A stretch of DNA of 64,000 nucleotides, taken from assembly GCA_000004985.1 (NCBI GenBank), contig GG738885.1; one strand, 5' to 3'. Of the stretch, positions 902 to 45,400 are shown one piece after another. Below the pieces are notes generated by a model that was not told the DNA's origin, did not search any database, and saw only the letters and a program-made list of their open reading frames with translations. The position numbers and the translations under genes are program-made. The DNA is from Naegleria gruberi. Taxonomy: Eukaryota. Position 1 is the stretch's first letter. The number at the start of each line of letters is the position of its first letter.

Positions 902-2407
902 TTAAATGATTATTCTCTTCTTAATGGCTTCCTTCTTTGCCAACTTTTCGAATTGAATTGTTTGTTTGAAACGATGATGAGTGTCAAGCATCAAAATGCA
1001 AATTTCAGATTCGACATCATCAAATAATGAATCAATCAAATGTTCGTTTTGAGCAGTGGCAAATAAATCCAAGTGATTCTTGACCTTATCGGTCATGTAT
1101 TTTGGCAGGTTGACAGATTTTTCACCTCTGACATCTAAATAATCTGTGTAGATTTCGAACGAAATTTCGTACTTCTTCTTTTCCACATCAAGTAAATCCT
1201 TTTCACTAAATTTCTTCTTTTTCTTCTTGTGATCTGTTGAATCAGAACCTGCATCACTACTTATTTCAGATGAAAGCTCGAACAAATATTCTTGAATGTC
1301 AAAACTCCTTTCACACAAAATTTTGTAATCTGAAATCTTTTCCAAAATTTGGAAGTTCTCAATGCTCAACTCAATCTGACAATGTTTTCTAAATAATTCT
1401 CTAGTAATTGGATGTTCCATTGTATCCATTAATAGAAATGCTCTCACTTGATTGAGTTTTCTATTAGTAGATTCATCCTTCTTGACTGATGCCACAAATG
1501 AAGTGACAATGACAGGAACTACCAATATAAGTGAAATCAAAATGACTACTAGTGAAATAGTAACCATAATGACAGTTACACTCTGACTATCCTTCTTGGT
1601 ATTATCCACATAGGAGACCATGATTTGAAATTCATCCTTATATCCATCAAGATAGGTTTGATATTGTTGTGAATTTAACAAAATCATGGCAGTTGAATAG
1701 TTTCCATTCATTGCTAGTCTGATAGCTCTTTGTTCGAGAAAGATGGCTTTGGAGGTTTCTAATTCTGCATTAGGTTTTCCCTTTAGTGCCACATTTCTAA
1801 TAGATTCTGGAACGAGTGCTTTAAAGTAAGCAGTATTGTTACTGAACTTTGACAGATAGGTATTGTACTTGGTTTGATATAATTGAGTAAGTGTTAAATT
1901 GTAATTGGAAAAGACTGAAGATCTGGCAGCTGCAATAGTTGTTTCTCTATAATAGTTAGTGTCAGAATCCAAATTATCCCACACATTGTTATATTCGTAT
2001 TGTAACACGAACGCAGCAATGATTAGACCAGCCAAAATGAGGAATGAAGTTAAATTAATAACTAGAGAACTCAAACTGAAAATTCTCAATGTTGAAAGCT
2101 GTAAAGTTCCTAAGCAAGTATTACAAGTGAGAATGACATCTGAATCTTTGCTCTTAACTGAAGAAGAACGTGGTGTTCTTATTGATGTAGTAATGGACTT
2201 GGCAGGTCCTTCTTCAGCAATATGTGAATTGGTAGTGGATGAATCATATTTTACACTTGCAAACTTTTTAGGAGGTTGCATTGGACTTGAAATTGGTGGA
2301 CTAGTTGCCAAATCGCTCGGAGAAGAACACTCTGCAGGAGAATGAAGGTTGACTTGACTGGTGCTCAACTCTTTGAGTTCTTGCAGTGAGCCACTGTTGG
2401 TGGTCAT
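902..2407 (-). CDS. Two-TM membrane protein with ~150-aa extracytoplasmic helical domain and C-terminal RGS (regulator of G-protein signalling) domain
   Basis: 501-aa ORF. Hydrophobic segments lie at ~aa 110-135 and ~275-300. The C-terminal region carries RGS hallmarks: ELFRKHCQIELSIENFQILEKISDYKIL, then KKYEISFEIYTDYL, then ICILMLDTHHRFKQT. It is a paralogue of the 21181..22869 gene. Confidence 0.7.
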   Translation of the reverse strand: MTTNSGSLQELKELSTSQVNLHSPAECSSPSDLATSPPISSPMQPPKKFASVKYDSSTTNSHIAEEGPAKSITTSIRTPRSSSVKSKDSDVILTCNTCLGTLQLSTLRIFSLSSLVINLTSFLILAGLIIAAFVLQYEYNNVWDNLDSDTNYYRETTIAAARSSVFSNYNLTLTQLYQTKYNTYLSKFSNNTAYFKALVPESIRNVALKGKPNAELETSKAIFLEQRAIRLAMNGNYSTAMILLNSQQYQTYLDGYKDEFQIMVSYVDNTKKDSQSVTVIMVTISLVVILISLILVVPVIVTSFVASVKKDESTNRKLNQVRAFLLMDTMEHPITRELFRKHCQIELSIENFQILEKISDYKILCERSFDIQEYLFELSSEISSDAGSDSTDHKKKKKKFSEKDLLDVEKKKYEISFEIYTDYLDVRGEKSVNLPKYMTDKVKNHLDLFATAQNEHLIDSLFDDVESEICILMLDTHHRFKQTIQFEKLAKKEAIKKRIII

Positions 2408-6488: not shown

Positions 6489-7013
6489 TTGAATATTCAG
6501 TTTCTCTTTTTCTTGAAGAACTGCTTTCAAAAGAATATTAAGAAGAAAAAAATAGAAAAAAACAAGATGAGCATTCAGTGTAGACTTCAGAAAGGTCAAC
6601 AAGATTCGAATATTATTCAAGATGACACATTAATGCAAATTTTTAACCAAACTAAACATAACAAAAAGAAGATTATCAAACAGAACGAACAACAATTCGT
6701 ATGGAAACGATTCAATACATTATTCATTGATTATTTTCAAGAACCAAAAACAAAACGAAAGACATCTGACATTAGCAAACAAGAAATTTTAAAAGTATTA
6801 CATCTTACTCAAAGACAGGCATGTAAACAACTTGGATGTACATTATCCACAATGAAAAGAAGATTTTACGAATTGAAATCTGATCTTGGTTTGAAATGTT
6901 GGCCACAGAATTATAATGAAATTTGTAACTTGCCAATATTTCCAAAAATTTATCCATTGAGTTTGAGTTTTATCTTGAATGCTTCAAATGACGAAACGAG
7001 TAAATCTGAATGA
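6489..7013 (+). CDS. Small RWP-RK-like domain protein, paralogue 1 of a 4-gene tandem array
   Basis: The C-terminal domain ...ISKQEILKVLHLTQRQACKQLGCTLSTMKRRFYELKSDLGLKCWPQNY...IFPKIYPLSLSFILN aligns with the RWP-RK core (L..L...AA..LG...T.LKR.CR..GI.RWP.RK). The real start is probably the internal Met at ~6564. Confidence 0.6.
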   Translation: MNIQFLFFLKNCFQKNIKKKKIEKNKMSIQCRLQKGQQDSNIIQDDTLMQIFNQTKHNKKKIIKQNEQQFVWKRFNTLFIDYFQEPKTKRKTSDISKQEILKVLHLTQRQACKQLGCTLSTMKRRFYELKSDLGLKCWPQNYNEICNLPIFPKIYPLSLSFILNASNDETSKSE

Positions 7014-7825: not shown

Positions 7826-8236
7826 ATGAGCTCTGTAAATAATTCCACCATGATTAGAGACACTTTGACAATGCAAATATTTGGCTCAGCAAAATCCACG
7901 AAAAAGGGCAAAATTCAATCAGCTTCTGACTGTCAATTTGTTTGGAAGAGAGTTGACACAAACTTTGGTGTATTTTTCTTGGAGAAAGATCTCGAATTTA
8001 GGTCAAAAAGAAAGACAACTGACATTAGCAAACAAGAGCTCATTAAAGTTTTACATCTTTCTCAAAGACAAGCTGCCAAATCATTGAATTGTACATTATC
8101 AACATTGAAGAGAAGATTTTATAATTTGAAAGAAGAATTTGGAATGTCAACATGGCCAAAGACATTTAAGGAAATAAGTCACCTGCCAATTTATCAGAAA
8201 ATGTATCCAATGTCTTTGAATTTCATCCTCAATTAA
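7826..8236 (+). CDS. Small RWP-RK-like domain protein, paralogue 2
   Basis: ...ISKQELIKVLHLSQRQAAKSLNCTLSTLKRRFYNLKEEFGMSTWPKTF...IYQKMYPMSLNFILN. Same domain and same orientation as the other array members. Confidence 0.65.
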   Translation: MSSVNNSTMIRDTLTMQIFGSAKSTKKGKIQSASDCQFVWKRVDTNFGVFFLEKDLEFRSKRKTTDISKQELIKVLHLSQRQAAKSLNCTLSTLKRRFYNLKEEFGMSTWPKTFKEISHLPIYQKMYPMSLNFILN

Positions 8237-9069: not shown

Positions 9070-9546
9070 ATGAACAGACAAGCTACCGGCATTACCAAAC
9101 AATCCAAACGAAACAATAGTTCACTTTCGAATAACCGATTCCATACAACGCATGTTTCGTCATCCACTTTTCCCAACACCCAAACAACCTCTCCACTCTC
9201 CAACACCATTTCCTCCTCCCAAATCATCTGGAAACAAGTCAACTCTCCCTCTGGAAAATACTTTAAAGAAAGCGCGCCAAAAGATTACCGAAAGTCCAAA
9301 ACCATTTCACAAGACGAAATGATTCGTGTATTGCATTTATCCCAAATTCACGCCTCAAAAATCCTGAATTGCAGTTTATCGACATTGAAGAGAAGATTCT
9401 ACGAATTGAAAAACAATTTTGGGCTCAAGTCGTGGCCTCAATATTTTAGAGAGGTGAGACATTTGCCGATTTTTAAGCAAATGTATCCGATGAGTTTGAC
9501 ATTTATTTTGAATGTTGATGAGGAAAAGGTGGTGAATGAGGAATAG
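9070..9546 (+). CDS. Small RWP-RK-like domain protein, paralogue 3
   Basis: ...ISQDEMIRVLHLSQIHASKILNCSLSTLKRRFYELKNNFGLKSWPQYFREVRHLPIFKQMYPMSLTFILN. This is the member closest to paralogue 4. Confidence 0.7.
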   Translation: MNRQATGITKQSKRNNSSLSNNRFHTTHVSSSTFPNTQTTSPLSNTISSSQIIWKQVNSPSGKYFKESAPKDYRKSKTISQDEMIRVLHLSQIHASKILNCSLSTLKRRFYELKNNFGLKSWPQYFREVRHLPIFKQMYPMSLTFILNVDEEKVVNEE

Positions 9547-9972: not shown

Positions 9973-11486
9973 TTGATATCTCATTCAATAACATTAAAAA
10001 AAATGGTCAACCATCTCATAATCTTGTCACTTGCCATTCTACTATTCATTTCCTCAATTTCCTGCCACATGGAAATGAAACTTCCCTCCCCACGTAAAAC
10101 ACTTCCAACAGGTGGCACCGATTACGATATGAGTTCTCCCCTAGGAGCTCAGAAACCATTTCCATGTGGTGGCAAAACCTCACTCTCCTCAATTACCACC
10201 TGGAATGCAGGTGAAACTGTTACAATCAATATCGAAGGTGGTGCCCCTCATGGTGGTGGACATTGTCAGTTTGCAATCTCTCCTCGAAGTGATCAGAAGA
10301 GGTGGATTGTTTTGGCTGATAATTTGGGAAGATGTCCATTGGATAAGAATTATTCATTCAAATTGCCAGGTGAGGTTCCAAGTGGAGATTATGTGTTTGC
10401 TTGGACTTGGATTAATGCTGTTGGAAATAGAGAGTAAGTAGTAATGGAATAGTTTGGTTTCTAATATTTTTAAGATATTACATGAATTGTGCTGATGTGA
10501 GAATTAACAATGGAGGAACTAAATTTGAAGGTAAACAACTCCTAGTAGCCAACATTCCAGATCCAAATCTTTCAGGATCATCCGTTTATTTCATTGGAGA
10601 AATTGGTGAATTCCCAAATAATCCAACTTTTGCAACTGACAAATTTCCACAAAGACCTGCTCTGACATTGACAGCAAGTGGAATTCAAGGAGGTGGAGGC
10701 GGAGGAGGCACAAATCCAACCAACCCAACCAATCCTACAAATCCTGGAATGAACAGCACTTGTAATTATTTCCTTGTTTCAGGAGATACCTTAAATGCAA
10801 TTGCTTCCAGATTTGGAACTACCTTATCTGTTATATATTCATTGAATCCAACAATTACTGATCCTACCAAGTTGCAAGTTGGTGATAAAGTTGTGTATCC
10901 ATGTTCTGGTCAATCTAGCGGTGGTTCTGGAAATACAGGTGGTGGCAGTTCAGGAAATGGAAATGGCTCTGGAACTACCAATACTTTTGGCTGTGTCTAC
11001 TCATGGACAATCATCTCAAAATTCAATGATACTAAATTAGGATTCATTGGAAAATTAAATGTCCAAACAAGTCTCGCACAGACAAACTGGAATATTGCAT
11101 GGACATTCCAAAAAGGAGGAATTTCTGCATTCAAATTGAGTAGCCAAACTTTGACATCTTCTGCACTTTCTCAGGTTGCTATTAAGGGAGAAACTCAAAT
11201 TGAAGCAAATAAGGTCATGTCCATTACGGTTTTCGGGGTTGGCGGAGTTTCAGATTCAGAAGCATTGTTTGTGAATAATGAGAGATGTACCAAGTCATCG
11301 AGTGCTGATTTTGAACAAACTAGTAATTCAGCTCCGGTGTTGGATTGCAAGTCAACTCCGACAAATTGTAAAGATTCATGTTTGGAACAGTATAATCAAT
11401 ATTGTGCTAGCTCTGGAATTGTAATTTGGAGGGGAATGAGTGCAATTATGACTGGATTGTTGATGATTTATTTGTTTGTATTGTAA
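9973..11486 (+). CDS. Secreted LPMO-like (N-terminal His, AA11/AA9-type motifs) + LysM domain protein with C-terminal GPI-anchor-like signal; 2 exons (intron ~10434..10474)
   Basis: Signal peptide MVNHLIILSLAILLFISSISC is followed directly by HMEMKLP, a His-1 as in LPMOs. A second His lies in HGGGHCQFAIS. Exon 1 ends ...VGNRE at a GTAAGT donor (10434). Acceptor AG at 10473-74 joins in frame to YYMNCADVRI (AA9/AA11-like Y..CA[QD]). Then come a G/TNP linker, a LysM domain (CNYFLVSGDTLNAIASRFGTTLSVIYSLNPTI...LQVGDKVVYPC), a G/S linker, a Cys-containing module and a hydrophobic C-terminus. Confidence 0.6.
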
Positions 11487-11774: not shown

Positions 11775-12230
11775 ATGAACAGAAACCAAGCCACTTCAAC
11801 ACTTCCAAATACAACTTATCAGAAAGCAGACGAAACTTTAGATTCCCAAGTTATGATGAATGTCTTTAAAAAGAACAATAAACAAAATACACCCACCATG
11901 CAACAATACAACCAAATAATTTGGAAACGAATTGATACTCCAGTTGGTTCCTTTTTCAAAGAAGCTCCACTTTCGAATAGATCCAAACGAAAGACACAAC
12001 AAATCAGCAAAAAAGAAATGCTACAAGTGTTGCATCTTCCTCAAAATCAAGCAAGTAAATTACTCGATTGCAGTTTATCCACATTGAAGAGAAGATTCTA
12101 CGAATTGAAAGACGATTTTGGACTAAAGTCTTGGCCTCAATGTTTTGCAGAAGTGAGGCATTTGCCAATATTTCGTCAAATTTATCCAATGAGTTTAGAT
12201 TTCATATTGAATACCCATGAAAAAATGTAG
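11775..12230 (+). CDS. Small RWP-RK-like domain protein, paralogue 4
   Basis: ...ISKKEMLQVLHLPQNQASKLLDCSLSTLKRRFYELKDDFGLKSWPQCFAEVRHLPIFRQIYPMSLDFILN. Confidence 0.7.
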   Translation: MNRNQATSTLPNTTYQKADETLDSQVMMNVFKKNNKQNTPTMQQYNQIIWKRIDTPVGSFFKEAPLSNRSKRKTQQISKKEMLQVLHLPQNQASKLLDCSLSTLKRRFYELKDDFGLKSWPQCFAEVRHLPIFRQIYPMSLDFILNTHEKM

Positions 12231-12426: not shown

Positions 12427-12765
12427 TTACAAATTATTACGGTGACAATGTTGCAAACATGAAATCTTGTAATCCCCAGTACTTCCAGCACAATACTTTG
12501 AACAATCAGATCCTTGTGAATCACTCAATGAAGAAATCAAATCAAGCAACTTTTTACTTGCCTTCTTCTTCAACTTTCTAATACTTGGGAACAATTTCTT
12601 GACGATTTGACTATCAGAGGAATTAGGATACATTCTACGAATAATATCTCTCAAAAGAGAAACAGAGTTGGATGATTTTTCTTGTTGTTGTTGTTGAGCA
12701 CTAACAGCACAGGCAAGCAAGAAAACCAAAGCAAGGACAATACAGAAAGAAATCTTATTCATATT
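12427..12765 (-). CDS. Small secreted Cys-containing protein (~113 aa)
   Basis: An internal Met begins a classic signal peptide, MNKISFCIVLALVFLLACAVSA. Mature part has QQQQQ, basic patches and 6 Cys. The upstream part of the 154-aa ORF is probably untranslated. Confidence 0.45.
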   Translation of the reverse strand, partial: NMNKISFCIVLALVFLLACAVSAQQQQQEKSSNSVSLLRDIIRRMYPNSSDSQIVKKLFPSIRKLKKKASKKLLDLISSLSDSQGSDCSKYCAGSTGDYKISCLQHCHRNNL

Positions 12766-13108
12766 GTTTAATTTTTTCAGAATGTTTAGAATAGAAATGA
12801 AATAGTTGTTGAAATTTAAAGGAAAATCACTATTCAACGTGCAAATTGGAAAAGAAATGTGTGTTTCAAGAGTGTACCGGTATTCTCTCATGTTCTGTTG
12901 TATTCTGGTAATATTGTCTTGATAATTGGTAAGATTACAATCAACATTGTAAATGAGTTTAATTAAACTGGTATGGATCTATCTTGTGTAGACGAAACTT
13001 TCCAATTGAGGGACAATGTTGGACCCAGTAACAGAAAGCTTATCACACAAATTATCACTCTCTAATTATCATGATAATACTTGAGTAAAAATAATTTGAT
13101 TTGAACAT

Positions 13109-14278
13109 TTATTGCTCAAAATCTGTCAGAACCTTAAAGTGAAGTAGGAAACTATCAACCTTTCCCTCCAACTCATCATAATAGTATTGATATGATAGGA
13201 ATGGGCATGGTGAATTCTTTTCACCACTCGAATAAATCTTCTTCAATGTTTTGATAAATAGATCAGATTCATATTTGATGTGTTTTCTGAATTGATTATC
13301 TTCATTAATTAAAGGAGTTTGATGTATTTTGAATTTGAATGCATCTTCATGAATTCTTTCGTCTAATAATTTACAAATACTCGTCAGTAATTTCTCACTA
13401 GTAATAAATCGATGACAATCCACAAAATTAATGGATTTTACATTATATTTCAATAATCCGACACATCTTTCCATCTCCTCTCGATTCAAATTACGTTGTC
13501 CCTCCTTTTTCAATGTAATTTTGTAACATGGAAGTACTAACTTATTTGGCTTTTCATCCCAATGTAAATAATCTTCAGATTCATTTAAATGATTTACATT
13601 CTTTGCCAAGCAATTGGCACAATTTGCAGTTTCACTTAAAATACTATTCAAAGCAACACATCCTTTCGAAAAGGCAACTAAATTCAGTTGAACATGTTGC
13701 TGATTTTCCCCAACATTTCTGCCAAATCCTTCATTCGGAAATAAATTATCCAAAATCTCGAATAGAACAGCATTTGCATTTCCCTTCACATAGAAATTCT
13801 CATATTCATAAATAAAACTCGATAAATCCAAAGTATTTGGTTGAATAATCACTAATCCACTCGTTTCTGGATACTTTCTATACAATATATCTAATACATG
13901 TTCATAATAAACCTCCATCACTCTTCCATTTTCATCATCATCAAAGCTTGACTCGAATGGATAATCCACCTGCAAATATTTCATAAAATCATTCAATCTC
14001 AATTGAATATCCCCAGGAAAAAAGATTGTATACTCCTTCTTTCCATTATTTCCATCATTCTTTTCATGATCAACAACAATATTAGTACTAATATTATTTA
14101 ATATTGAAATTTCTTCTATCCGATCATCACTACTAATCAATTTTAAATTATTGGCGGGAATCCATGAGGGAGAAAAGTAATGAACAATTTGTTGTCGATT
14201 TTCAGAGAGTTTTAATATTTTGGTTCGTATGAAGGAACCTGCTTTGCCAAAGAGAAACGTTGCAGGTGCTTTAGACAT
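13109..14278 (-). CDS. Hypothetical protein (389 aa), no domain recognised
   Basis: Long uninterrupted ORF with non-repetitive composition. Confidence 0.55.
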   Translation of the reverse strand: MSKAPATFLFGKAGSFIRTKILKLSENRQQIVHYFSPSWIPANNLKLISSDDRIEEISILNNISTNIVVDHEKNDGNNGKKEYTIFFPGDIQLRLNDFMKYLQVDYPFESSFDDDENGRVMEVYYEHVLDILYRKYPETSGLVIIQPNTLDLSSFIYEYENFYVKGNANAVLFEILDNLFPNEGFGRNVGENQQHVQLNLVAFSKGCVALNSILSETANCANCLAKNVNHLNESEDYLHWDEKPNKLVLPCYKITLKKEGQRNLNREEMERCVGLLKYNVKSINFVDCHRFITSEKLLTSICKLLDERIHEDAFKFKIHQTPLINEDNQFRKHIKYESDLFIKTLKKIYSSGEKNSPCPFLSYQYYYDELEGKVDSFLLHFKVLTDFEQ

Positions 14279-14446: not shown

Positions 14447-16159
14447 ATGAGCAAACGAGATTTAAAACCATTATCAAAATCATTGTTTAGTTTTCTTAAG
14501 AATCAAGATAGTGATGAGGAAGAAACGGATACTTTTTCTAGAATACAACCCTATGTAAATAATCATCAATATGAAACTGTTGATTTTACGGATAGGAGGA
14601 ATGAATTCTATAGATTGATGAGGAAGGGAATTATTGCTAGAATGGAGGAAAATTATGTTGAAGCTTGTAAATATTTAGATTTGGCTTTGGAGTTGGAACC
14701 CGATAATTATGAAGTTTATTTGGAGAAGAGTATTTGCCTGAGTTTATTTCATAGGTTTGTTATTTGTTTTACTCCAACAATTCTCATGTACATTATTGTT
14801 GAATTATTCAATAATATTACATCATCAAATTTATTATCATAATGATCGGAACATTTGCTTTTTGAACATCAAACAAATAATAATATTATTATAAATATAT
14901 TCAATGATTGATTCCATCATGCACATATTAAACTCATCATCATTTTCTAATTGTCTAATAATAATAATAACATTATTAGAACACTTTCATCAATAAGAGT
15001 ATTAGTACATGGTCTCAATCACTCAAAAAGAAGTTATTGGTTCAATGACAATGAAAGGGAATTGGAACGTGAATATTTCGGATGTCTTTTCAGAGGATTA
15101 ATAGAGGAAGTGAATGATCAACAGGAGGCTAGCTTGAAACTCTACGATCAAGCTTGCAAGCTTTATCCGACTGGATTTTATGCCTTGTTTTCATATGCTT
15201 ATGCTCTGGGTTCTATCTCTCTCAATCCGAGCACAACATTGGCACCAAATGTCAGAGAAAATTACATGAATCAAGCTTGTGAATATTTCAAAAAGGCTCT
15301 CACCTCTATTAGAAATTCTCCACTCCACTCTAAATTTCATACCTATTATATATGCATTCTGTATACAAATATTGCTTGGGTCATTAGAGAGAATAATCAA
15401 ATTGATGATGAGGCACTTGATTACTATTCTGAGGCCATTAAATTGAATGGCAAACATTTGAGATCCTATCTCTCTAGAGCCAGTTTATACTCTAAAAAGA
15501 GAGAAAATGGAAAATCTATTTCTGATTTTACAGCATGTATTGAAATTAAGGAAAAACAAACACCAAGATGGATTGGAATTGTGGACAAGATGAAAGTCTT
15601 CTTCAAAGATATGGAACAAGATTCACATATTATTTTCACAACCATCTATTTGTTCATGTCTAGACACTTGGTTGAGATTTTCACCATGAAATATATTGAT
15701 AATTTTCAAGTTGACACTCCAGAAACTACCATTACAACAAGTGGCACGTTGCTAAATAAGCAACAAACAAAGGATTATGAGAAGAGGTTGAGTGATCTCT
15801 ATGAAGAACGAGGAATTCAATTTTTAGATGATAACAAGATTGAGGAAGCACTACTTGATTTCACTGCAGCCAAAATCATTTGTCCATTCAGAGCTCACCC
15901 GTACATTTTCACGTACTTTATTGGAATTAATGTTATTGACAGATCAAAATGCTTTTCAATTTTGGAGAATTATTTGGAATTCATGGAATGTGAATCAAAT
16001 ATAAGAGGAGTGATTAGTGAAGAATCATTAAGCCAATTCGACATGTCTACTCTATACAAACACATTTCTCAACTCTACGAAGAACAAAACCAATCAAAAC
16101 AAGCCAAATCATCTCGCCTCAAGGAAAAACAATTACTTAATTATTCTAGAATTTGCTAA
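14447..16159 (+). CDS. TPR-repeat protein, probably 2 exons (ORFs 14447..14842 and 14951..16159 joined by an intron)
   Basis: TPR-like helices occur in both ORFs (YVEACKYLDLALELEPDNYEVYLEKSICL; ASLKLYDQACKLYP; LDYYSEAIKLNGKHLRSYLSRASLYS; EEALLDFTAAKIICPFRAHPYIF). A phase-2 donor near 14753 and the acceptor ...attattag at ~14969 give a continuous reading. The junction is not certain. Confidence 0.55.
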
Positions 16160-17791: not shown

Positions 17792-19666
17792 ATGGTTTCA
17801 ACTAGCAAGAAGAAGAACTCTTCTTCAAACACTTCCCTACCAAATAGTCCAGCCATTTCCATCACTTCAGTTGAAAGCAATGACATGAACAATTCACCAT
17901 CTTCTCTTCCTTCCTCTCCTTCGAATTCTTCCAATTTTTTCTCTTCTTCACCGAACAGCAAATCACCTGGTAGAAGACTTCACTTTTTTCCCGCCAAATC
18001 TCCTAAAAAAAAATCTACAACTTCCATCTCTACTGATTCACTTCATGCTGCAAGTAATACTAATCATGGTTGTGATGCGATAGGTGATTATACCTTTTCG
18101 TATGAGGCTGTGCTAGATGATGAGGAGACGAGACAGTGTTTATTGGAATATATGAGGACGATTAGATGTGAGGAAAGTTTGTTGTTTTTAGATCAGGTGA
18201 ATTCATTTCATAGAAAAAGATCAACTGCGAATAGGTGGAGTATGATACAGTCAATATTTGAACAATTCTTTTGTGAGCACTCGAAATATGAATTGAATTT
18301 ACCACAGAGAGTTAAGGATATGATGATTCACACCTATTCGGACGTTGTTGAGGAAATTGCTCATAGGAAGAGAATGAATCTTGATGAGGATACTAATAGT
18401 AGTAGTAATTCCAGATCATCATTGGAACAAGCAAATCAGCCACCACCACAACAACAAGTAAAACAAAACAAGAACAAGAATAATAATGAAAAGAGTAATA
18501 ATAATAATAGAAATTCTAAGGATGATTTGGATGTTTCACTAGGTTCTTTGGATTACATAGATTTGAGTGATTGTGAGGAGGCCCTAAAGAAGGCAGAGAG
18601 TTACATCCTCATCAACTTGAAAGAATATGTCTTTCCAAAGTTTGTCGGCTCTGATCACTTTCAAGGATTCATCTCAACAAAGAGCAAGACCTTTATTAAT
18701 ACTATTGGTACGGTGAAGGCCTTATCTCATTCGTGCTTTGTTGAATCATTGATGGACATGAGGAGGTGTGAAATTAATGTAGATCAAGTGAGAATGATCA
18801 AGAAACATGTCTTTGATACCAGATATTGGGATTGTATCTATCAGAAGGAAACAAGCTATGGTTTTATTTCTTCAAAAAAGTACATTCTTGGTGAGGACGA
18901 TCACGCTAAGGGTGTTTACTTTGCCAAGTGTGAAGTGATCTTTCCTTACTCTGCTGACCAAATTATGAATATCATGACCAATACAAAGAATAGAATTGAA
19001 CACGACAAGAATTTGGAAGATATCAAGAGAATTGGTTATAGAAACAAGTCTGGAACTACAAATTTTAATCCAAATCTGGTACATTCCAGTGATGAAGATG
19101 AGGATACACTCTCTTCCACTAGCTCTGCAATGTCTGACCTTCACGATACTGCATCTTCCAGATCTCATACATCAAATCATTCACATCAACAAACAAATCA
19201 TCATTCGCCAATATCAGGAAAAACCAAATTGGCCACCACATTAACACATGAACGATACAAGCTTGGTTGGCCAATCAAGTCTAGATATTATTTGCTCGCT
19301 CAGAGTATGGTACATGATACAACAGATAACATGTACATTATTGCAAAAAAGTCTTGCAGAATTCCAAATTATGATCCAGATGAAGGAACAAATATTGAAG
19401 CCATCAATATTGGTTGTTGGATGTTTCAACCTTTACTAGATGAAAATCAAAAGCCATGTTGTAAATACATTCAATTTGTTGGAACAGATTTGAGAGGAAA
19501 CATTCCAACATTTATCATTGAAAAGATTGTTAGAAAGAGAACTAGTAACTTTTACAAATCCACCATGAAAATGATCAAAGCTTGCGAAGAAGAGTCCACA
19601 ACAAGACCATTCGATTCAAGTGGTTATTTCGATACTCTAGATGAGAATGGCAGCATGGCTCTCTAA
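17792..19666 (+). CDS. RGS domain + START (StAR-related lipid-transfer) domain protein
   Basis: The RGS-like N-terminal part (YTFSYEAVLDDEETRQCLLEYMRTIRCEESLLFLDQVNSF...) is split by a poly-N/Q insert and resumes at LKKAESYILINLKEYVFPKFVGSDHFQGF. The C-terminal ~220 aa carry START-like motifs (...YFAKCEVIFPYSADQIMNIM..., ...GTDLRGNIPTFIIEKIVRKRTSNFYKSTMKMIKA). Confidence 0.65.
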   Translation: MVSTSKKKNSSSNTSLPNSPAISITSVESNDMNNSPSSLPSSPSNSSNFFSSSPNSKSPGRRLHFFPAKSPKKKSTTSISTDSLHAASNTNHGCDAIGDYTFSYEAVLDDEETRQCLLEYMRTIRCEESLLFLDQVNSFHRKRSTANRWSMIQSIFEQFFCEHSKYELNLPQRVKDMMIHTYSDVVEEIAHRKRMNLDEDTNSSSNSRSSLEQANQPPPQQQVKQNKNKNNNEKSNNNNRNSKDDLDVSLGSLDYIDLSDCEEALKKAESYILINLKEYVFPKFVGSDHFQGFISTKSKTFINTIGTVKALSHSCFVESLMDMRRCEINVDQVRMIKKHVFDTRYWDCIYQKETSYGFISSKKYILGEDDHAKGVYFAKCEVIFPYSADQIMNIMTNTKNRIEHDKNLEDIKRIGYRNKSGTTNFNPNLVHSSDEDEDTLSSTSSAMSDLHDTASSRSHTSNHSHQQTNHHSPISGKTKLATTLTHERYKLGWPIKSRYYLLAQSMVHDTTDNMYIIAKKSCRIPNYDPDEGTNIEAINIGCWMFQPLLDENQKPCCKYIQFVGTDLRGNIPTFIIEKIVRKRTSNFYKSTMKMIKACEEESTTRPFDSSGYFDTLDENGSMAL

Positions 19667-21180: not shown

Positions 21181-22869
21181 TTATTTATTGGAAGGAACTT
21201 TGAGAGAATCAAGATTAAGACCTGATTTACTGTCTTGAGCCTTCTTACTCTTTCTCACAGTTGGAAGTTTAATCTTGAGTGATTCCTTCTTTGTCTTTTT
21301 CTGGAATTCAACTGTTTGCTTGAATCGGTGATGGGTGTCAAGCATCAAAATACAAACTTCTCCTTCCACTGGATCGAAAATCATATCACTAAGATGTTCA
21401 TTCTCTCCTGATGCAAACAAATCTAATTGAGTTTTGACCTTGTCAGCTGCATGTTTGTTGATGTTGACAGATTTGTCACCATTGACATCTAGGAAATCAG
21501 TAAAGATTTCAAAAGCAACTTCGTACTTTTTCTTTTCAATTTCAATTAAATCTCTTTCAGTATAACCCTTTTTCTTCTTCTTTTTACCTTGGCTGTCACT
21601 ACTCATTGAAGTTGATGTTGAACCAGTGTCAGAAATGGCATCTGAAAAGGCGACAGTTAGCTCTTGATCATCATACAAGAATACTTGAATTTCAAATGAT
21701 TTCTCACATAAAATCTTGTAATCTGTAATCTTGTCAAGTAACAAGTAATTTTCCAAGCTCATTTCTTGTTTACAATATTCTTTGAATAATTTTCTAAGTT
21801 TGTTATCTCTCATGGTGTCCATAAGCATGTAGGCGTTTGCTTTCTTCAATCTCTTATTGTTGGCATTGTCAGAATTCATGGAAAAGGCAAGTGACATGAT
21901 GACTACTGGAATAACAATGACAATTGACACACAGACAATAATTAATTGCAAAGTGGTCATGGTAGTTGAGAAATCTCTATAGCTAACCTCCAAAGCCTTA
22001 AAATAATCAACAGAAGGCTTGAATTCCACTTCATACCAAGGTAAATAATCTTGATAGGTGTCAGAGCCAATTAAATTCATGGCAGCTGTAAAGTTTCCAG
22101 CTTTGACCATACTAATAGCTTGTCTCTCAACACTCATAGCCTTCACTGTCTTCATATCATAAATTGTTATATTATGTTTGACAGAATATCTCAATTCATT
22201 TGGCATGTATGCCAACATGTTATTAATTTCAGTATTGAACTTGGTTGAGTAATTTCCATAGAGATTGGCATAGCCAAGAGCAACTGTCTTGTTGTTATTG
22301 GCATAGACTGCTGAACGACATGTGTAAACCATCATGTCTCTATAATAGGAAGTGTCAAGATCCATATTTGAAATTGATGTCAATAAATTATTGCTGCCAA
22401 CGTAGCCAACAATAATGACAGTGAGTAATGCGATGAAACCAAGTAGATTAGCAGTTAAACTAGTCAAATTGACAAGCTTGAAGGATGACAGCTTGAGGGT
22501 AGTTCCACAACACATTCTGATGGCAAATAAAGAATTTGACGAGTGACTTGTCCTAGATCCAGTTCCAGATTTCTTATGGGAAGCAACAGAACTCTTCTTT
22601 TTAGACTCTTTAATGATGGTAGAAGCTGCTGGCTCTGTTGCAAAATTTGCTTTTGGTTTTGGACTGGTTGGAGTTGTTGGCGTTTGACATTTTTCCTTGA
22701 CAAGATGATCCATAGAATGACTCGAGCTAGAAAAGGATGAAGAAGCATCACCTGCTGTAAAATTTGTTGGAGTCAAGTAATAATCACAATTATGAACGTC
22801 TATTCCATTCAATTCTTCGATTGCTTTTTGCATGGAACTGTCAGCTGACACTGAAGTTGATTCTTGCAT
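21181..22869 (-). CDS. Two-TM extracytoplasmic-domain protein with C-terminal RGS domain (paralogue of 902..2407)
   Basis: 562-aa ORF with the same order: TM, ~150-aa helical ectodomain, TM, then an RGS domain (KLFKEYCKQEMSLENYLLLDKITDYKILCEKSFEIQ...KKYEVAFEIFTDFLDVNGDKSVNI...VCILMLDTHHRFKQTVEF). Confidence 0.7.
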   Translation of the reverse strand: MQESTSVSADSSMQKAIEELNGIDVHNCDYYLTPTNFTAGDASSSFSSSSHSMDHLVKEKCQTPTTPTSPKPKANFATEPAASTIIKESKKKSSVASHKKSGTGSRTSHSSNSLFAIRMCCGTTLKLSSFKLVNLTSLTANLLGFIALLTVIIVGYVGSNNLLTSISNMDLDTSYYRDMMVYTCRSAVYANNNKTVALGYANLYGNYSTKFNTEINNMLAYMPNELRYSVKHNITIYDMKTVKAMSVERQAISMVKAGNFTAAMNLIGSDTYQDYLPWYEVEFKPSVDYFKALEVSYRDFSTTMTTLQLIIVCVSIVIVIPVVIMSLAFSMNSDNANNKRLKKANAYMLMDTMRDNKLRKLFKEYCKQEMSLENYLLLDKITDYKILCEKSFEIQVFLYDDQELTVAFSDAISDTGSTSTSMSSDSQGKKKKKKGYTERDLIEIEKKKYEVAFEIFTDFLDVNGDKSVNINKHAADKVKTQLDLFASGENEHLSDMIFDPVEGEVCILMLDTHHRFKQTVEFQKKTKKESLKIKLPTVRKSKKAQDSKSGLNLDSLKVPSNK

Positions 22870-33590: not shown

Positions 33591-36500
33591 TTAAATGTAA
33601 TACTTACTGGCAAAAACTGGAATGTATGAAAATTTTCCACCAACAATACACAAATATAATTCTGCTGGAATCATACCACCTCCTCTTCTTCTACAATTAA
33701 CTTTACATTTAAAGCTCTTTCTAGGTGCTGGTGGTGTTTTCAAAACTCGACTCACATGAGCAACGATTTGAGGATAGGACTCTGGATGAACAACATCTTC
33801 CCACCTCTCCAAGTTATCGTACAAATCACTTGGATCGTAATTCAATTTGGTTAGGAGTGTTTTGTTCAAACTGATAATTCTTCCACCAGGGAACATGAGA
33901 ATAATACCAAAATCTGATGAATCCATTTCTTGCTTATTTTCCATGAGCATGACCAATTCTTGATATGAATCTTGAATAGCTGTTGGTTTGTTATTCTCTC
34001 CATAGGTTGGTGGTTCATCGTATTGCATTTTAATTATACCCTTAGATGCCAATTCAGAGAAACGATTTCTCAAATTTTCATTGATAGCTGAGAGCATGGC
34101 TGATTCATTGGCCTTTCTCAAATTTTCCTCTTTCAGTCTCTTATTTTCCTCTCTCAAGATTTCAATTTCCTTTTGAGCATCAGTTCCTGGCTCAGTTTCG
34201 TTAGAGGTGGAGAGTCTTTTAGCAGAGTCGTTCAATTTATGTTTCAATAAGACTGTAAAAAATTAATAAGAACAAAACTGGAAGAAATTAAACTTACGTG
34301 AAATTGGGAAATTTTGAGTTAAATACTCAATGTAGGTCATGTTAGCAGTTTCTGGATTCGAATCAAATTGTTTCAAATGACCAATAGATTCTTCAATCAT
34401 TTGTTTAGTGTCATCTCCAATCTGGAGTGATTTAATCATTTCCTCGTTACTCATCTTTATCAATTTTTCGAAAATTTCCTCATCTTGTTTTGAAGAACTA
34501 GCTGGTTTTTGATTGGTATCTTCACAATCTTCTATTTGTACATCGTCATTGTTATTTACATTGCTATTATTTTGAGATCTCATCTTGTCGGCTTGTTGCT
34601 CTTCAGTAGCGTTAGAATGAGAAATTGGCATCATGTGACCCACTTCATTATGAATTTCATTTTCATCCATTTCAACAATTGATGCAAACAGTGGACTTTG
34701 AGGTGAGAATCTCAAAAATTCATCATTGGTAAAATCAATCAGAGGTGAAGCTGCTCCTCCAGGTGAAATTAATTGCTGTTGATGGAGTTGTTGTTGATGT
34801 TGTTGATTTTGAATTTTCAAGTTATTTAGTGCATTCATATGTTGTTGATGTTGATGCAAGAGAGCTTCATCAACATGCAACGAATAGGGTGTTCCAAAAA
34901 GACTCTGATTATTTTGATAATCGTAGGCAGAATTCAAATTATTGCAATGAAGGTAGAATGTATCAACTGGCGTCCTCATTAAAATTTGTGTCAATTGTTG
35001 AATTTCAGGAGGTTGATTGAGAAGGAATGGAAGTGACAATGGATGATTATCTCTGTTAGGGAAAATTACGTTACCTGCAGTGAGCATGGCTCCAGGAGTT
35101 TTTAATTCTGATTCTGTCAATTGAAGAGGTAAATTATTTACAAGATTAGGATTAATCATTTGTTGTTGAGTAGGAGGAATTCTTTGATTGGCTTGACCTT
35201 GAGTAGCTTGTTCTGGTTCAGTTTTTGGTTGAGTTGTTGTTGAAGATGAAGCAGTAGCTGTTGGTTTTTCCTTCTTCTTTTTAGGTGAAGATGCCTTCTT
35301 CTTCTTTTTCTTTTTTTCATTCTTCTCAGTAGTTGCTGTTGCTGTAGAAGATGAAGCAGCATTAATAGTGGTAGCTGTATTATTATTAGTTGATGATGAT
35401 GGTTCAACTGCATTTGATGATGTTTGTGATGATTGTGGTTTTTCAGTAGGAACATCATCCAAATCTTCATCATTATCATCTTCTCCAGATTTCTTTTTTC
35501 TTCCTCTCTTCTTTCCGACTTGATCTTGACATTCCAATCCGTGAGCTAAGCATCTAGAACAAGGTCTCTTGTCTTCACAACAAGCATGTCTAATTTTGGT
35601 GATTGTGAAATTATAATTTTTGATGAAATAATATATGATTATTATAACAAACATTGGATAAACGGTTAAATGGATAAGATGCACAATAAGAAGTGAAACT
35701 TACGCCTTTCTGCAGCTTACACAAGCCAATTTAGCAACTCTTCTAGGTCTCTTCATCATGTTGGACATTTCCTTCTGCATGTTGGCCATATTACTGTTTG
35801 ATGCTTCTTTAGTCTTATCAGAATTATTGGAAGAAGAACCATTTGAATCTGTCTTGCCAGTTATTGTTGAATTATTATTATTTGATGGTGGTACAGGAGG
35901 TGCATCTTGGTCATTCAATGATGAAGAATTAAATTCATTAATTGGCAATTCGTGATGACTAATATTCTTCAATGTATTCAATTTAGATAAATTGTTTAAA
36001 CTTGATGAGGATGGAATTGTTCCACCACTAGCCATTAAACCACCACCAGTAGCTAGTTCCACGAACATGATTAAACGACAATTGTTGATCCATTAAACCA
36101 CCAGAATTAGCAATATTTGTGCTTGCCTGAAGGTGATGTAAATTACTCAATGATGGATGAGAAAGGAGAGAATTGGTATGACTCGTCTGTTGAGAGATAT
36201 TGGATGATGATAAATTATTATTTTGACTTAGATTTGGATAGGATGATGCAGCAGCAGACATTAAGTGATGAAGTTGTTGTTGTTGATTTTGCTGATGAGA
36301 GGATAATAAATTATTAGTTGTTATTGTTGCTCCTCCAGCATTCGTTTGGGATGGTTGCGTTGGCAAATGATTGCCATAGTGATGCTGCTGCTGATGATGT
36401 TGATGTTGTCCTAGTCCGTAATAACCTGCTGTGCCATTCAACAAGGGATGTTGATGATTAGTCAGTAAATTCCCAGAAGAATTGATCAAATGCAAATTAT

Positions 36501-38008: not shown

Positions 38009-39469
38009 TTATGGTTGTTGAGTAGTTTTCACAGATTGTACATTTGCAAGCATTTCCTTACAGAGCTCAGAGCTTTCGAATTGTAAATAGAGAGGAAACA
38101 CCATTGTACTAATCACATCCTTCTCCAAAGAATCGAACAAATCTTCCACATATCCTTCTTCCTCTATTCTCTTCTTTGCTGCATTAATTAGCTTTTTACT
38201 GGTATTCACCTCAAACACAGCATTATCCTCTAAAAAGGTATCGAAAATATACGAGGCCTTGACATGATGTTCTGGAATGATAATTTCTGAAGGCGGAATG
38301 AAGATGGTAATATCGCACGATTCATCCACAGCAAGATTTGATCCTGATTTCTTAATCAGATCGGAATTGTAGGTGAATTTCTTACAGGCCTTACATAAAA
38401 TCTTGTACTGAGCTATTTCTTCAATAAATATTGCCAATTCCAAACTGAAAATATTAGAGAGATAGGCTTTAAAGTATCTTCTCATTGTAGAATTTTCCAA
38501 AACTTCCTGTACAGTCAACTTATCTGATCCAACAGAGGCAATACTCACTCTTCCCTCCTCCACTTCTTCCTGCTGGAGAGTTTGTTCGATATTGAGAATG
38601 GATCTGGTTTTTCTAGCAGTTTGGAAAATGAAAAACATGTCAGGGAATAATTTCTTCAAATCATTCAAATATTGATCTGGTGATTGTTCTACTTCTGAAA
38701 CCAAATTGCTCGTCTCTGAACTGGCCTTTCCCAAATTGAAAATAAATTTACCATAATCAGGTCTTTCAGATAAATCCTTATAGAAATAACTAGTTTCGAA
38801 TGAACCATGACTAATAATATGCATTGTAAACAATGAAAACATATCCATATGTCTAATATCTTTCAATGAAGGTAATCTCAATTTCTTATCTTCCTTAAAC
38901 ATGAATTTCAGAATGGTTGGAAGTGCCAATGCATGTCTCACTAAACTTGCCTTTGGAACCATTAATAAACCATGTTTGATAGAGTTTGAGATTTTACAAT
39001 GCAAGAGATTGGTTCCTTTCATTGATTTTACGCACTTTTCATTGTTTTCTTGATGGCAAATCACTGGAACAACGTTCATCATTAAGAAACTGCTCAAATA
39101 ATTACTAATTGATGTGATGACATGTTGACACATGGGACAGCCGAACCATTTAATGACAATGAGGAGTACTCTGTGTTTTTCACTCAATCTGAGAACAGAA
39201 TGTCCACTTGGATGGACAATCATCTCTTCCAAAACATTCAAAATGTCAAAAGTTGCTGAGGCGTTTGACATGACCGTGTCAGCACTCTTGGAAATATCGG
39301 ATGAAGCATCTATTGTATTTCTTCTATTACATGTTTGTTCTCCAGCTAAATCTTGAGACAGGGAAACTTCGTCCTTGCTATGTCTTTTTAAATTTGATTG
39401 GGTGCCAACTGTCAAAAATCTAACGCTATTTGTTTTCTTTGAAGATGAAGCGGAGTTGGTATCACTCAT
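38009..39469 (-). CDS. Thioredoxin-fold (CxxC, AhpC/TSA- or PRXL2-like) domain + RGS-like domain protein
   Basis: N-terminal half has ...RVLLIVIKWFGCPMCQHVITSIS..., a WxxC(P)xC in a beta-alpha context. The C-terminal half is RGS-like (MRRYFKAYLSNIFSLELAIFIEEIAQYKIL...IPEHHVKASYIFDTFLEDNAVFEVN...FDSLEKDVISTMVFPLYLQF). Confidence 0.55.
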   Translation of the reverse strand: MSDTNSASSSKKTNSVRFLTVGTQSNLKRHSKDEVSLSQDLAGEQTCNRRNTIDASSDISKSADTVMSNASATFDILNVLEEMIVHPSGHSVLRLSEKHRVLLIVIKWFGCPMCQHVITSISNYLSSFLMMNVVPVICHQENNEKCVKSMKGTNLLHCKISNSIKHGLLMVPKASLVRHALALPTILKFMFKEDKKLRLPSLKDIRHMDMFSLFTMHIISHGSFETSYFYKDLSERPDYGKFIFNLGKASSETSNLVSEVEQSPDQYLNDLKKLFPDMFFIFQTARKTRSILNIEQTLQQEEVEEGRVSIASVGSDKLTVQEVLENSTMRRYFKAYLSNIFSLELAIFIEEIAQYKILCKACKKFTYNSDLIKKSGSNLAVDESCDITIFIPPSEIIIPEHHVKASYIFDTFLEDNAVFEVNTSKKLINAAKKRIEEEGYVEDLFDSLEKDVISTMVFPLYLQFESSELCKEMLANVQSVKTTQQP

Positions 39470-42406: not shown

Positions 42407-45400
42407 TTATTCTTTCAGTTTCAAAGTAGAGCCAAGATTTTCTTTCAATTCAATTTTTTTGTTCATACTTTCATAACTGTCAGATAGGACAAAACGTGAG
42501 AAGGTATCGTCAATATTCATAATTATGGCACAATACAAATCTGAGAGAACTTCCTTAATTTCCTTATCGTTTTGTTGATTGTTTCTTACAGATTCGAATA
42601 TTTTATGGAAGGATTTCTTGGTATTGTGTGAAATGTTAAGTTCCATTGGAGAATTATTTTCAATAAATGTAGCTTTCCACTCTTCAAAATGTTTACACAA
42701 TTCTGTGGTTGCAGGTGTGTTGCCATTATTGATAGATTCGAATACTGGTGCAAGTTTAGTCCAGAATATTACATTTTCCAACGAATGCTCAGTTTTGGCA
42801 AATTGTTTGAAAATTTCACATAATGTTGGATTTTTAAGAATTTCATTCAGTTGATTATCTTCCTCAAGTATAGACTCCTCTTTCATTTTAGTATGCTTTC
42901 CACTAATTTTAGATTTAACTAATTCATAAATTGAGACTAGAGAAACTAATCCACCAAAACTCATAATTAACATGATATTATACAATAATTCGAAAGCAAT
43001 TTGAGCAGCAGATAAGCCCTGGTTTGAAGCTACAAGAAGTGAAAATCCAAGCCCATAAGTAATAATAAAGAATATAATGCTCGTAAAGAAGAAAATAAAT
43101 TCTTTTCTGAAAGCAAGATTGTCATTCACTATCAAGTAATTTTTGATTGGATTAATCACTAATTTCTTATCTTTTAAGGTCAGTTTGGTACTCAATTGAA
43201 CATATCTTAATTCCATATAAATATCAAAAAAGTGAATTACACAAACTAATAAAGACATGACCAAAACAAATGAAAATAATGAACCAGCCATGATTGATGC
43301 ATATTGACTTGAAGAGATTACTGCTGTTTGTTGTAAGGAAATGAAAATTACATAAAAAGCAATAAAAACACATGCAACAATCAAGTTAGCAATAATGGAG
43401 AAGGTTTTGCTTGAAAATAAAAGCTTAATCCACTTGAATTTCTTCTCATTGAGCACGTCAACTTCCTTCTCATCGAAAATAGCCATAATTTCATATAGAT
43501 ATCTAAATACAATGTATCGTGAGCTTAATATCAAATAGTTTAGAATAGATAAACAATAGAAAGTGGAAGCAATCATTGTAGAAACTTGTCTCACAATCAT
43601 TGAGTTTGGATTTTTTGCTAAACTTAGAGAATTTGCAATAATGTAAGTGAAAACAAGTTCAATTAATAGTGAAATTAACGCAAAGTATGGAATTATTCCT
43701 CTACTCTTGGTTGGTGTTTTCTTACATGTGACAATAACACCCACCAATGCAATTAATGTTAAAAATATTAGGAAACAACCAATAACAATGGATGCAATAA
43801 CACCACCTTCATTAGCTAATGTCACTTTGACGTCAATAAATGATGAAAATGAAGTTGTGTGATTACAATAGCAATTGACAACACTACTATTTTTAGAAAT
43901 TTCAGAAATGCATCCATCGGTAAGCCATTTCTTACTAGTTTCATCAAAAAACTTGCAAGAGACAACAAGTGAGGAATTATTTTGTACGCTTGACAAAATT
44001 TTAGAATCCACATTCAAGGAAAGTATAATAGGATTTGCCAAATTTGAAACTTGTAAGAATTGGCCATTTAAAATATATTTCAATTCAACAACTTTTGCAA
44101 TATTAACTGAAGAACCTTTGGAAACTTTGGAAATAATACTAGCATCAGTCAAATTACTTGTTAGTTCAGTAGCATTCGAATAGAGAGAAGCCAACTTTTC
44201 CATATTGAAATAAGTAATTGAACCAACTGAAACTCCTTCTCTTACCAGATCTGAAGGTGTAGAAATGGTTGTATTTCCGTCATTGAGATATGATGAAGAA
44301 TTGAGGTTTCTAACAACTGAAACAATAAATGAAGGTGTTTCAGTTTTAAAAATACTATCTTTCTCATCACTGGATTTGGAAGAAACGAGAATCAAGGTTT
44401 CAATTACAGAACTTGAAGAGTAATTTGAAGATACAATGACATTGGAATAGGCATTCAAAACTTGACTAATGGTTGTGTCTATAGCATTAGATGATTTCAA
44501 AGTAGATACTTCTAACTGGTTCAATTCAGATGAAATTGTCGAAATCAAATTCGAAACAGTGGAAACAATAGAAGTTGTAACTGATGATTGAGATGAAATG
44601 ACATTCAAAGCAGTAGAAACCTTCAATGTCTGATCAAGATCAGAGGTATTTCTCTGAACTGTTGACAATGCTTGTGTAACCATAGTCAAAACTGAAACAG
44701 CACTAGATGCTTTCGAATAAGTATCAGAATTTGAAGCAATACTAGCAATATCCTTTGTAGAAATCGAACCTAAGAATGACTCTGTCACTACATTTTCGTA
44801 TTTCATCACTTGAATTGTTTCAGCAGTTTTAAATGAATAAGAAATTCCTCCAAATGAAATTCTTAGTACTGCAGTAAAGTTTCCTTCAGAATTCAATGAA
44901 TATGAAACAATCATTGGATTGGCAGTCGATACAATAGTAGGGTTACCAATATTGGTATAAACACCATTGTTCGAAAACAGAACAGTATAAGTTGCACTTG
45001 TCAAATATGATTTGAGATTTGAATGATACTTGACTGCAATTAGCACAGTGGAATCAACAAAAGTGATAGTATTATCAAATTTGATTGAAATATCTGGTGA
45101 GCAATCAGTAGAATTACCAGAAAGTATCCATCCATCATCACAATAAGGAGTTAGTTTTCGAATAGCTAAATTGCCGTTGTCTGAAATATATATTGAGTTA
45201 TCATTTCTATCAACTGCTAGTGAATTAAGTCGGAACGAAAACAATGATGTCTTTCCATCTTTGTATCCTGATACACCAAACGTTCCTGCAATATTTGTTA
45301 TGAAACCAGATGATTTCTTTAACATTCGAATAGAACTTCTTGAATGTGATAAAATCAAATCACCATTTGATAAATAGAAAAAATCAGCAAGAGAAGTCAA

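Follow-up and report, generated by a model that had tools for sequence, protein, structure and literature searches.

Lytic polysaccharide monooxygenases (LPMOs) of family AA11 are regarded as the most widespread LPMO family of fungi (PMC12186267). The nearest solved relative of the protein described here is AfAA11A of the fungus Aspergillus fumigatus (Protein Data Bank (PDB) entry 7P3U), which cleaves only alpha- and beta-chitin with oxidation at C1, and whose copper site is formed by His1 and His71 with Tyr133 and Ala69 at the axial positions, a surface tyrosine (Tyr25) taking part in chitin binding (PMC8668981). The three solved AA11s have in common a second sphere of Tyr, Glu, and Asn, a combination unique to AA11, and the catalytically relevant second-sphere Gln or Glu lies two residues before the axial Tyr, as Q-x-Y in AA9 and E-x-Y in AA11 (PMC12186267). 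We analysed a 64,000-nucleotide stretch of Naegleria gruberi DNA (contig GG738885.1 of assembly GCA_000004985.1; hereafter the window), in which a plus-strand gene at 10003..11486 encodes a 480-residue protein related to these enzymes. It is probably a resident gene for a secreted, canonical AA11 LPMO that is tethered to the membrane at its C-terminus and carries a chitin-targeting module of its own.

As judged from the sequence, residues 22-213 form a canonical AA11 LPMO domain in which all of the catalytic residues are kept. The domain is encoded in two parts, one in exon 1 (10066..10433; residues 22-143 and two nucleotides of the Glu144 codon), assigned by phmmer, AlphaFold2 (AF2), and Foldseek, and the other in exon 2 (10475..10682; residues 144-213), assigned by alignments and including a conserved C-terminal extension that begins LLVAN. 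A phmmer search against all PDB sequences returned the AA11 entries 7P3U (E=3e-31), 9EXJ (1e-16), and 4MAH (1.8e-16), with AA9 appearing only at E=0.12. The 7P3U alignment spans His22 to residue 171, and the BLASTP alignment to homologues reaches mature position 192. More than 200 homologues were retrieved, and essentially all of them are AA11-type. An earlier reading of this DNA made without database searches (the sequence-only reading) had proposed a secreted protein with an LPMO-like copper-protein fold at this position, and these matches bear that proposal out.

The fold is likewise that of an LPMO. An AF2 model of the exon-1 part (residues 22-143, 122 residues), built with an alignment of homologues, has a pLDDT of 85.4, and Foldseek against the PDB places 7P3U first (E=5.8e-8, TMq 0.83). 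Five AA11 entries lead the list (7p3u, 9exj, 9hdg, 4mah, and 4mai), followed by AA10, AA9, and AA16, such that the immunoglobulin-like LPMO fold expected by the sequence-only reading is recovered in the modelled part.

The individual residues can be matched by counting along the alignment with AfAA11A, in which H22 corresponds to His1, Y41 to Tyr25, A81 to Ala69, H83 to His71, E144 to Glu131, and Y146 to Tyr133. Exon 1 supplies the first brace histidine (His22, 10066-10068), the second (His83, 10249-10251), the surface tyrosine (Tyr41), Ala81, Asn142, and Cys55, Cys88, and Cys111; exon 2 supplies the second-sphere Glu144, the axial ligand Tyr146 (10479-10481), Cys149, and Asp151. The second histidine had been placed in the motif HGGGHCQ by the sequence-only reading, correctly so: HGGGH occupies residues 83-87, it is the majority form of the motif (84 of 115 homologues), and His83, within A-x-H-G-G-G, is invariant in an alignment of 71 sequences (the Naegleria protein and 70 homologues). 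In the same alignment Y125 and C34/C128 are invariant together with H62 (mature numbering), and at least 90% of the sequences have H1 and E123. The AA11-specific GN-R-E-x-Y set (N142, E144, and Y146) is complete, and E-x-Y is found in all 115 homologues.

Two neighbouring plus-strand open reading frames (ORFs) cover the region, 9973..10437 and 10482..11486. Position 9973 is merely a mechanical TTG start; the first ATG occurs at 10003, where the surrounding sequence is rich in A. The spliced coding sequence (10003..10433 joined to 10475..11486) is 1443 nt long, keeps the frame, and reads uninterrupted through 480 codons for 480 amino acids. The spliceosomal intron between the two parts (10434..10474) is 41 nt long, in phase 2, 24% GC, and of the GT..AG type (GTAAGT...TTTTTAAG). 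Its removal creates the junction codon GA|A for Glu144 and restores the family motif GNRE/YYMNCAD without a gap. Because the rebuilt GNREYYMNCAD is conserved in 115 of 115 homologues, both splice sites are fixed by homology. The alternative in-frame GT..AG choices (68 or 82 nt) remove the motif, and retention of the intron brings in a TAA stop at 10435-10437. The intron had been called at these coordinates from the letters alone, and that call was right. Elsewhere in the window, a 45-nt intron candidate on the minus strand (34253..34297, GTAAGT...TTTTTTACAG) links two ORFs, 34263..35684 and 33591..34247, the second of which has a PAS_3 match; the candidate resembles the intron of the AA11 gene in style.

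A signal peptide is predicted at residues 1-21 (10003..10065, plus strand; MVNHLIILSLAILLFISSISC) from hydropathy, the -3/-1 rule, and homologue alignment. By inspection it has a hydrophobic core, with Ile at -3 and Cys at -1 in agreement with the rule, and it is followed by HMEMK, such that cleavage is predicted between C21 and H22. The same C/HME junction is present in several homologues. For nearly all of 118 homologues the alignment pairs His22 with the His directly after the homologue's own signal peptide, and in the mature chain of 7P3U its counterpart is His1. The predicted mature N-terminus is thus the histidine that the sequence-only reading had named, located directly at the predicted cleavage site.

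Downstream of the catalytic domain the protein consists of several further modules. In each extracellular module of the protein the number of cysteines is even. A first linker (10683..10760; residues 214-239), recognised by direct reading, contains a run of seven glycines and (TNP)4. It leads into a LysM/CBM50 module extending from Cys240 to Cys287 (10761..10904), in which residues 246-284 match Pfam PF01476 (E=1.1e-9; 38.6 bits, the cut-off being 20.9), well in keeping with the earlier assertion that the LysM is genuine. Among solved structures the module is closest to Ecp6, a fungal effector that binds chitin (4b8v, 1.5e-12), and to the LysM of a fern chitinase (5yz6, 6.7e-8); bacterial peptidoglycan-binding LysMs are weaker matches, at 1e-4 or worse. 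Then follows a second linker rich in Gly, Ser, Asn, and Thr (10905..10991; residues 288-316), also identified by direct reading.

Between this second linker and the C-terminal tail lie two segments absent from the sequence-only reading, an orphan domain and a Cys-rich stalk. The orphan domain (10992..11288; Cys317 to Cys415, ~100 residues) is predicted to be all-beta by AF2. HMMER against 1.84 billion representative sequences gave no relatives, only two spurious matches of low-complexity or repeat character, and there was neither a Pfam match at E<=10, nor a PDB sequence match, nor a metagenome relative; tblastn found no paralogue in the window. A single-sequence AF2 model contains beta strands only and is unreliable (pLDDT 41.6), and Foldseek with it returned nothing significant (E>=0.09, assorted beta-sandwich carbohydrate-binding modules (CBMs)). 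Assignment to CBM2 was tried and rejected: a hidden Markov model built from four solved CBM2s scored 4.5 bits, a value equalled or beaten by 160 of 2000 shuffled sequences, and Pfam CBM_2 has no match at E<=10. The stalk (11289..11405, by direct reading) is rich in Ser and Thr and includes four cysteines (435, 442, 446, and 454).

The protein ends in a putative C-terminal anchoring signal (11406..11486; residues 455-480 and the stop codon), recognised by hydropathy and inspection. It comprises ASSG (455-458, with S456 or S457 as the candidate omega residue), the spacer IVIWRG, and a hydrophobic end of 16 residues (MSAIMTGLLMIYLFVL) that reaches the very C-terminus. This layout agrees by inspection with the hydrophobic, glycosylphosphatidylinositol (GPI)-like terminus noted earlier. 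A hydrophobic C-terminal tail is also present in seven of 120 AA11 homologues.

From these features we infer copper binding, C1 oxidation of chitin, the type of anchor, and a biological role. Cleavage of the signal peptide at C21/H22 would make His22 residue 1, and its amino group and imidazole, together with His83, would form a histidine brace holding a single copper. Tyr146 and Ala81 would take the axial positions and Glu144 and Asn142 the second sphere, as in the three solved AA11s. The reduced Cu(I) enzyme would then react with H2O2 or O2 to oxidise C1 and break the chitin chain, as for AfAA11A, with the Tyr41 surface and the LysM keeping the enzyme on N-acetylglucosamine (GlcNAc) polymers. 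The flexible Gly/Thr/Pro/Ser linkers, the orphan domain, and the Cys-rich stalk would provide spacing from the membrane, and the C-terminal signal would tether the protein to the plasma membrane on its outer side, a side topologically equivalent to the lumen of the phagosome. The role that we prefer, though tentatively and with somewhat less than even confidence, is an attack on chitin-walled prey such as yeasts and fungal spores, either at the cell surface or in the phagosome.

Several observations weigh against this interpretation or parts of it. The intron acceptor is AAG, which is less common than YAG. The homologue matches include no transcriptome-assembly proteins near-identical to the product of the AA11 gene, and the neighbouring genes do have such members. 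No orthologue from Willaertia or another Naegleria is present among the matches listed (annotated proteins). The AF2 model of the catalytic domain, covering exon 1, lacks the strand with Glu144 and Tyr146. The spacer IVIWRG is rather hydrophobic, which is atypical of a GPI signal. A literature search for chitin in Naegleria cyst walls or for a Naegleria chitin synthase produced nothing usable. Finally, some AA11s, AfAA11B among them, favour soluble chito-oligomers, such that an insoluble chitin substrate is not guaranteed (PMC12186267).

One alternative retains the enzyme and changes its target. The enzyme could remodel or open the wall of the amoeba's own cysts, in encystment or excystment, a possibility to which we give somewhat less weight than to prey chitin. 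A tether to the producer's own surface suits action on the producer's own wall, AA11s have been tied to development in Neurospora (PMC12186267), and AA15s have been tied to chitin remodelling (PMC5823890), offering an analogy with the developmental roles proposed for fungal AA11 and insect AA15. The missing transcript-derived copies in public assemblies would also suit stage-specific expression. However, the literature search yielded no evidence of chitin in N. gruberi cyst walls, and other cyst-forming heteroloboseans contributed no orthologue among the matches listed.

A second alternative, somewhat unlikely in our view, also keeps the enzyme and concerns only the anchor, which would consist of one membrane-spanning helix at the C-terminus (residues ~459-480), lacking any cytoplasmic tail. 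A hydrophobic stretch of 22 residues can indeed be delimited here (IVIWRGMSAIMTGLLMIYLFVL), and the AA11 of Orciraptor is described as having a C-terminal transmembrane domain (bioRxiv 10.1101/2021.12.30.474559). Such a helix would nonetheless have to include Arg463, and its end would coincide with that of the protein, leaving no stop-transfer charges, whereas small residues (ASSG) some 8-9 residues ahead of a 16-residue hydrophobic end are the classical layout of an omega site, and GPI-anchored proteins have been reported from Naegleria (PMC9928731). The anchoring tail is most probably of the GPI type, and otherwise a tail-less transmembrane helix.

The specificity of the LysM bears on a third and quite improbable alternative, in which the protein is primarily a lectin for the capture of bacterial prey, its LysM binding peptidoglycan and its LPMO domain being secondary or acting on another GlcNAc-containing glycan. 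It would fit that N. gruberi feeds mostly on bacteria and that LysM domains have peptidoglycan as a ligand alongside chitin. Yet this LysM is much closer to those of Ecp6 and the fern chitinase than to the bacterial peptidoglycan binders, by the E-values given above, and peptidoglycan cleavage is not known from any LPMO.

The sequence-only reading had itself leaned towards a non-canonical copper protein of the X325 type, on the grounds that Asp replaces the glutamine usually expected in the active-site motif NCAQ. The Y..CA[D] motif is present as reported, in YYMNCAD at residues 145-151, but its Asp does not signal a non-canonical site. After NCA, 84 of 115 homologues have Asp and a single one has Gln, and the chitin-active AfAA11A also has Asp there; Asp is therefore the AA11 majority and not a mark of X325. 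The catalytically relevant position is that of Glu144 in E-x-Y, which is distinct from the residue after NCA and is intact. As NCAD is normal in AA11, it gives no pointer to new copper-site chemistry.

In its full form the X325/Bim1 alternative holds that this is a GPI-anchored copper-binding protein with no polysaccharide cleavage, acting in copper acquisition at the cell surface and using the NCAD Asp as an extra ligand. It draws on the joint presence of a His brace and a GPI-like tail, a pairing reportedly found in X325 proteins too (Labourel et al. 2020; Garcia-Santamarina et al. 2020). We regard it as very improbable. AA11 came out at the top by both sequence and fold: no X325/BIM1-like Pfam family or PDB structure was found at E<=1, compared with 3e-31 for AA11, and no X325 entry is present among the top 50 Foldseek matches of the exon-1 model, the matches there being AA11, AA10, AA9, and AA16. 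Furthermore, nothing is missing from the AA11 second sphere (Asn, Glu, and the axial Tyr), the surface Tyr for chitin binding is retained, and the LysM module points to a polysaccharide substrate.

The AA11 reading having been preferred, there is the question of whose gene it is, on which the sequence-only reading, silent on the non-fungal host, did not touch. Four nearby ORFs are exact matches to N. gruberi GenBank proteins, on a contig of 362,555 bp. The codon usage of the AA11 gene correlates with that of its neighbours at 0.95 (relative synonymous codon usage), and its GC content at third codon positions (GC3) is 0.28, inside the range of the window. Because of this host-like codon usage and GC3, together with the intron and the flanking N. 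gruberi genes, the AA11 gene is a resident N. gruberi gene rather than a contaminant. The sequences nearest to its product are AA11s from early-diverging fungi, none more than 47% identical, and all named homologues are fungal. In a neighbour-joining tree the Naegleria AA11 forms a long branch by itself, basal to the early-diverging fungal group, and no specific donor lineage is indicated; the origin may lie in an old transfer or in old ancestry. Recent horizontal transfer or contamination was considered and ruled out by codon usage, intron, and flanking genes. That this is not a working Naegleria gene, being instead a fungal contaminant of the assembly or a pseudogene in decay after recent transfer, is scarcely credible: it would account for the exclusively fungal named homologues at no more than 47% identity and for the absence of the protein from the collection searched, but it is contradicted by flanking genes on the 362-kb contig whose products are identical to N. 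gruberi proteins, codon usage as in the neighbours (r=0.95), a short AT-rich intron like another in the window, 480 unbroken codons with complete catalytic residues and paired cysteines, and a position in the tree on a long branch of its own outside the modern fungal groups.

Both the AA11 protein and the product of the adjacent ORF 9070..9546 are absent from the protein collection searched. The GenBank numbers of the flanking genes (EFC41434 at 7826 and EFC41436 at 11775) leave exactly one model between them, EFC41435 / XP_002674179. That adjacent ORF belongs to a group of four tandem small paralogues on the plus strand with a weak RWP-RK domain (6489..7013, 7826..8236, 9070..9546, and 11775..12230), and the AA11 gene is located between the third and the fourth; the paralogues of the missing ORF are present in the collection. 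Immediately to the right, the segment 12427..16159 contains the ORF 12427..12891 (minus strand), a C2orf69 homologue (13109..14278, minus strand), and a TPR protein (14951..16159, plus strand), and the flanking accession numbers leave room there for one model only, EFC41437. The reference annotation of this segment looks incomplete or merged.

Further away, five ORFs with an RGS domain are distributed through the window, at 902..2407 (minus), 17792..19666 (plus), 21181..22869 (minus), 38009..39469 (minus), and 42407..47125 (minus). One of them encodes a 1572-residue protein with NHL repeats, a GPS motif (G-protein-coupled receptor proteolysis site), and a C-terminal RGS domain, and another combines RGS with a weak START-like match. 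Two adjoining minus-strand ORFs at 49035..50847 are rich in DUF4116 repeats (E=3e-70 and 2e-26) and are probably one gene divided by a short intron. At 54803..56191 (plus strand) is an Apn1/Nfo-type apurinic/apyrimidinic (AP) endonuclease whose sequence matches that of an N. gruberi protein at 100% identity; its closest relatives otherwise are a Willaertia protein at 71% and then bacterial deoxyribonuclease IV at 52-56% over ~60% of the query. As the bacterial matches span only ~60% of it, the N. gruberi enzyme has an extension of ~180 residues.

The AA11 protein belongs to a known family and is an ordinary-looking enzyme of it; what is unusual is the non-fungal host and the combination of domains. 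Only about five members of AA11 have been characterised, and a literature search found no publications connecting Naegleria with LPMOs. After the rhizarian Orciraptor, the apparently intact gene in Naegleria (Discoba) gives AA11 a second non-fungal lineage, and it bears on the question of whether the family is older than the Fungi or has spread by gene transfer. The catalytic domain, LysM, orphan domain, and anchor together suggest an oxidative chitin tool at the surface of a culturable phagotroph. The most far-reaching account would have a fungal-type AA11 in a heterolobosean, either acquired anciently from an early-diverging fungus or inherited from older eukaryotes, act as a tethered tool at the surface or in the phagosome against prey chitin or the organism's own cyst wall, with the orphan domain representing a new CBM family. 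Taken as a whole this is speculative and doubtful; if it were true, with an ancient AA11 serving as a tethered tool, AA11 biology would reach from fungal saprotrophy to protist phagotrophy.

Among known systems, the X325/Bim1 proteins resemble the Naegleria protein in having an LPMO-type beta-sandwich with a His brace at its N-terminus, and their GPI attachment to the cell surface parallels the anchor proposed here. They have no detectable sequence relationship to the Naegleria protein, which has the AA11 second sphere and carbohydrate-binding features. The AA11 of Orciraptor agilis, ~25% identical to AoAA11, is set apart, as described, by its different eukaryotic supergroup, and no LPMO-LysM fusion has been described for it (bioRxiv 10.1101/2021.12.30.474559). 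The nearest sequences are those of the early-diverging fungi Calcarisporiella, Spizellomyces, Paraphysoderma, Basidiobolus, Allomyces, and Coemansia, at 42-47% identity, with which the Naegleria protein has HMEMK.P.PR, HGGGHCQ, and GNREYYMNCAD in common. Most of the fungal proteins differ at the C-terminus, where they carry CBM5/12, CBM18, CBM19, or a Cys-rich module (C..G.W...C..GT.C), and none among the matches listed combines a LysM, the orphan domain, and the tail.

AfAA11A remains the closest of the solved enzymes, with ~40-45% identity over the catalytic domain. Both proteins begin HMEM, both have NCADV, the equivalents of His1, His71, Ala69, Tyr133, and Glu131 are kept, and the insertion bearing the surface Tyr25 (DY.M.SPL) is present. 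AfAA11A differs in being a soluble fungal enzyme with three disulfides in the domain rather than two, whereas the Naegleria protein is encoded by a heterolobosean and adds the LysM, the orphan domain, the Cys-rich stalk, and the membrane-anchoring tail. A partly similar architecture is that of an environmental protein of 338 residues from a JGI metagenome (P0088), in which an AA11 domain is likewise followed by a single C-terminal LysM. It has neither the orphan domain nor the hydrophobic tail, and its catalytic domain lies on a Dikarya-like AA11 branch (GNREMYQNCAIV), from which it follows that its fusion of AA11 to LysM arose independently of that in Naegleria.

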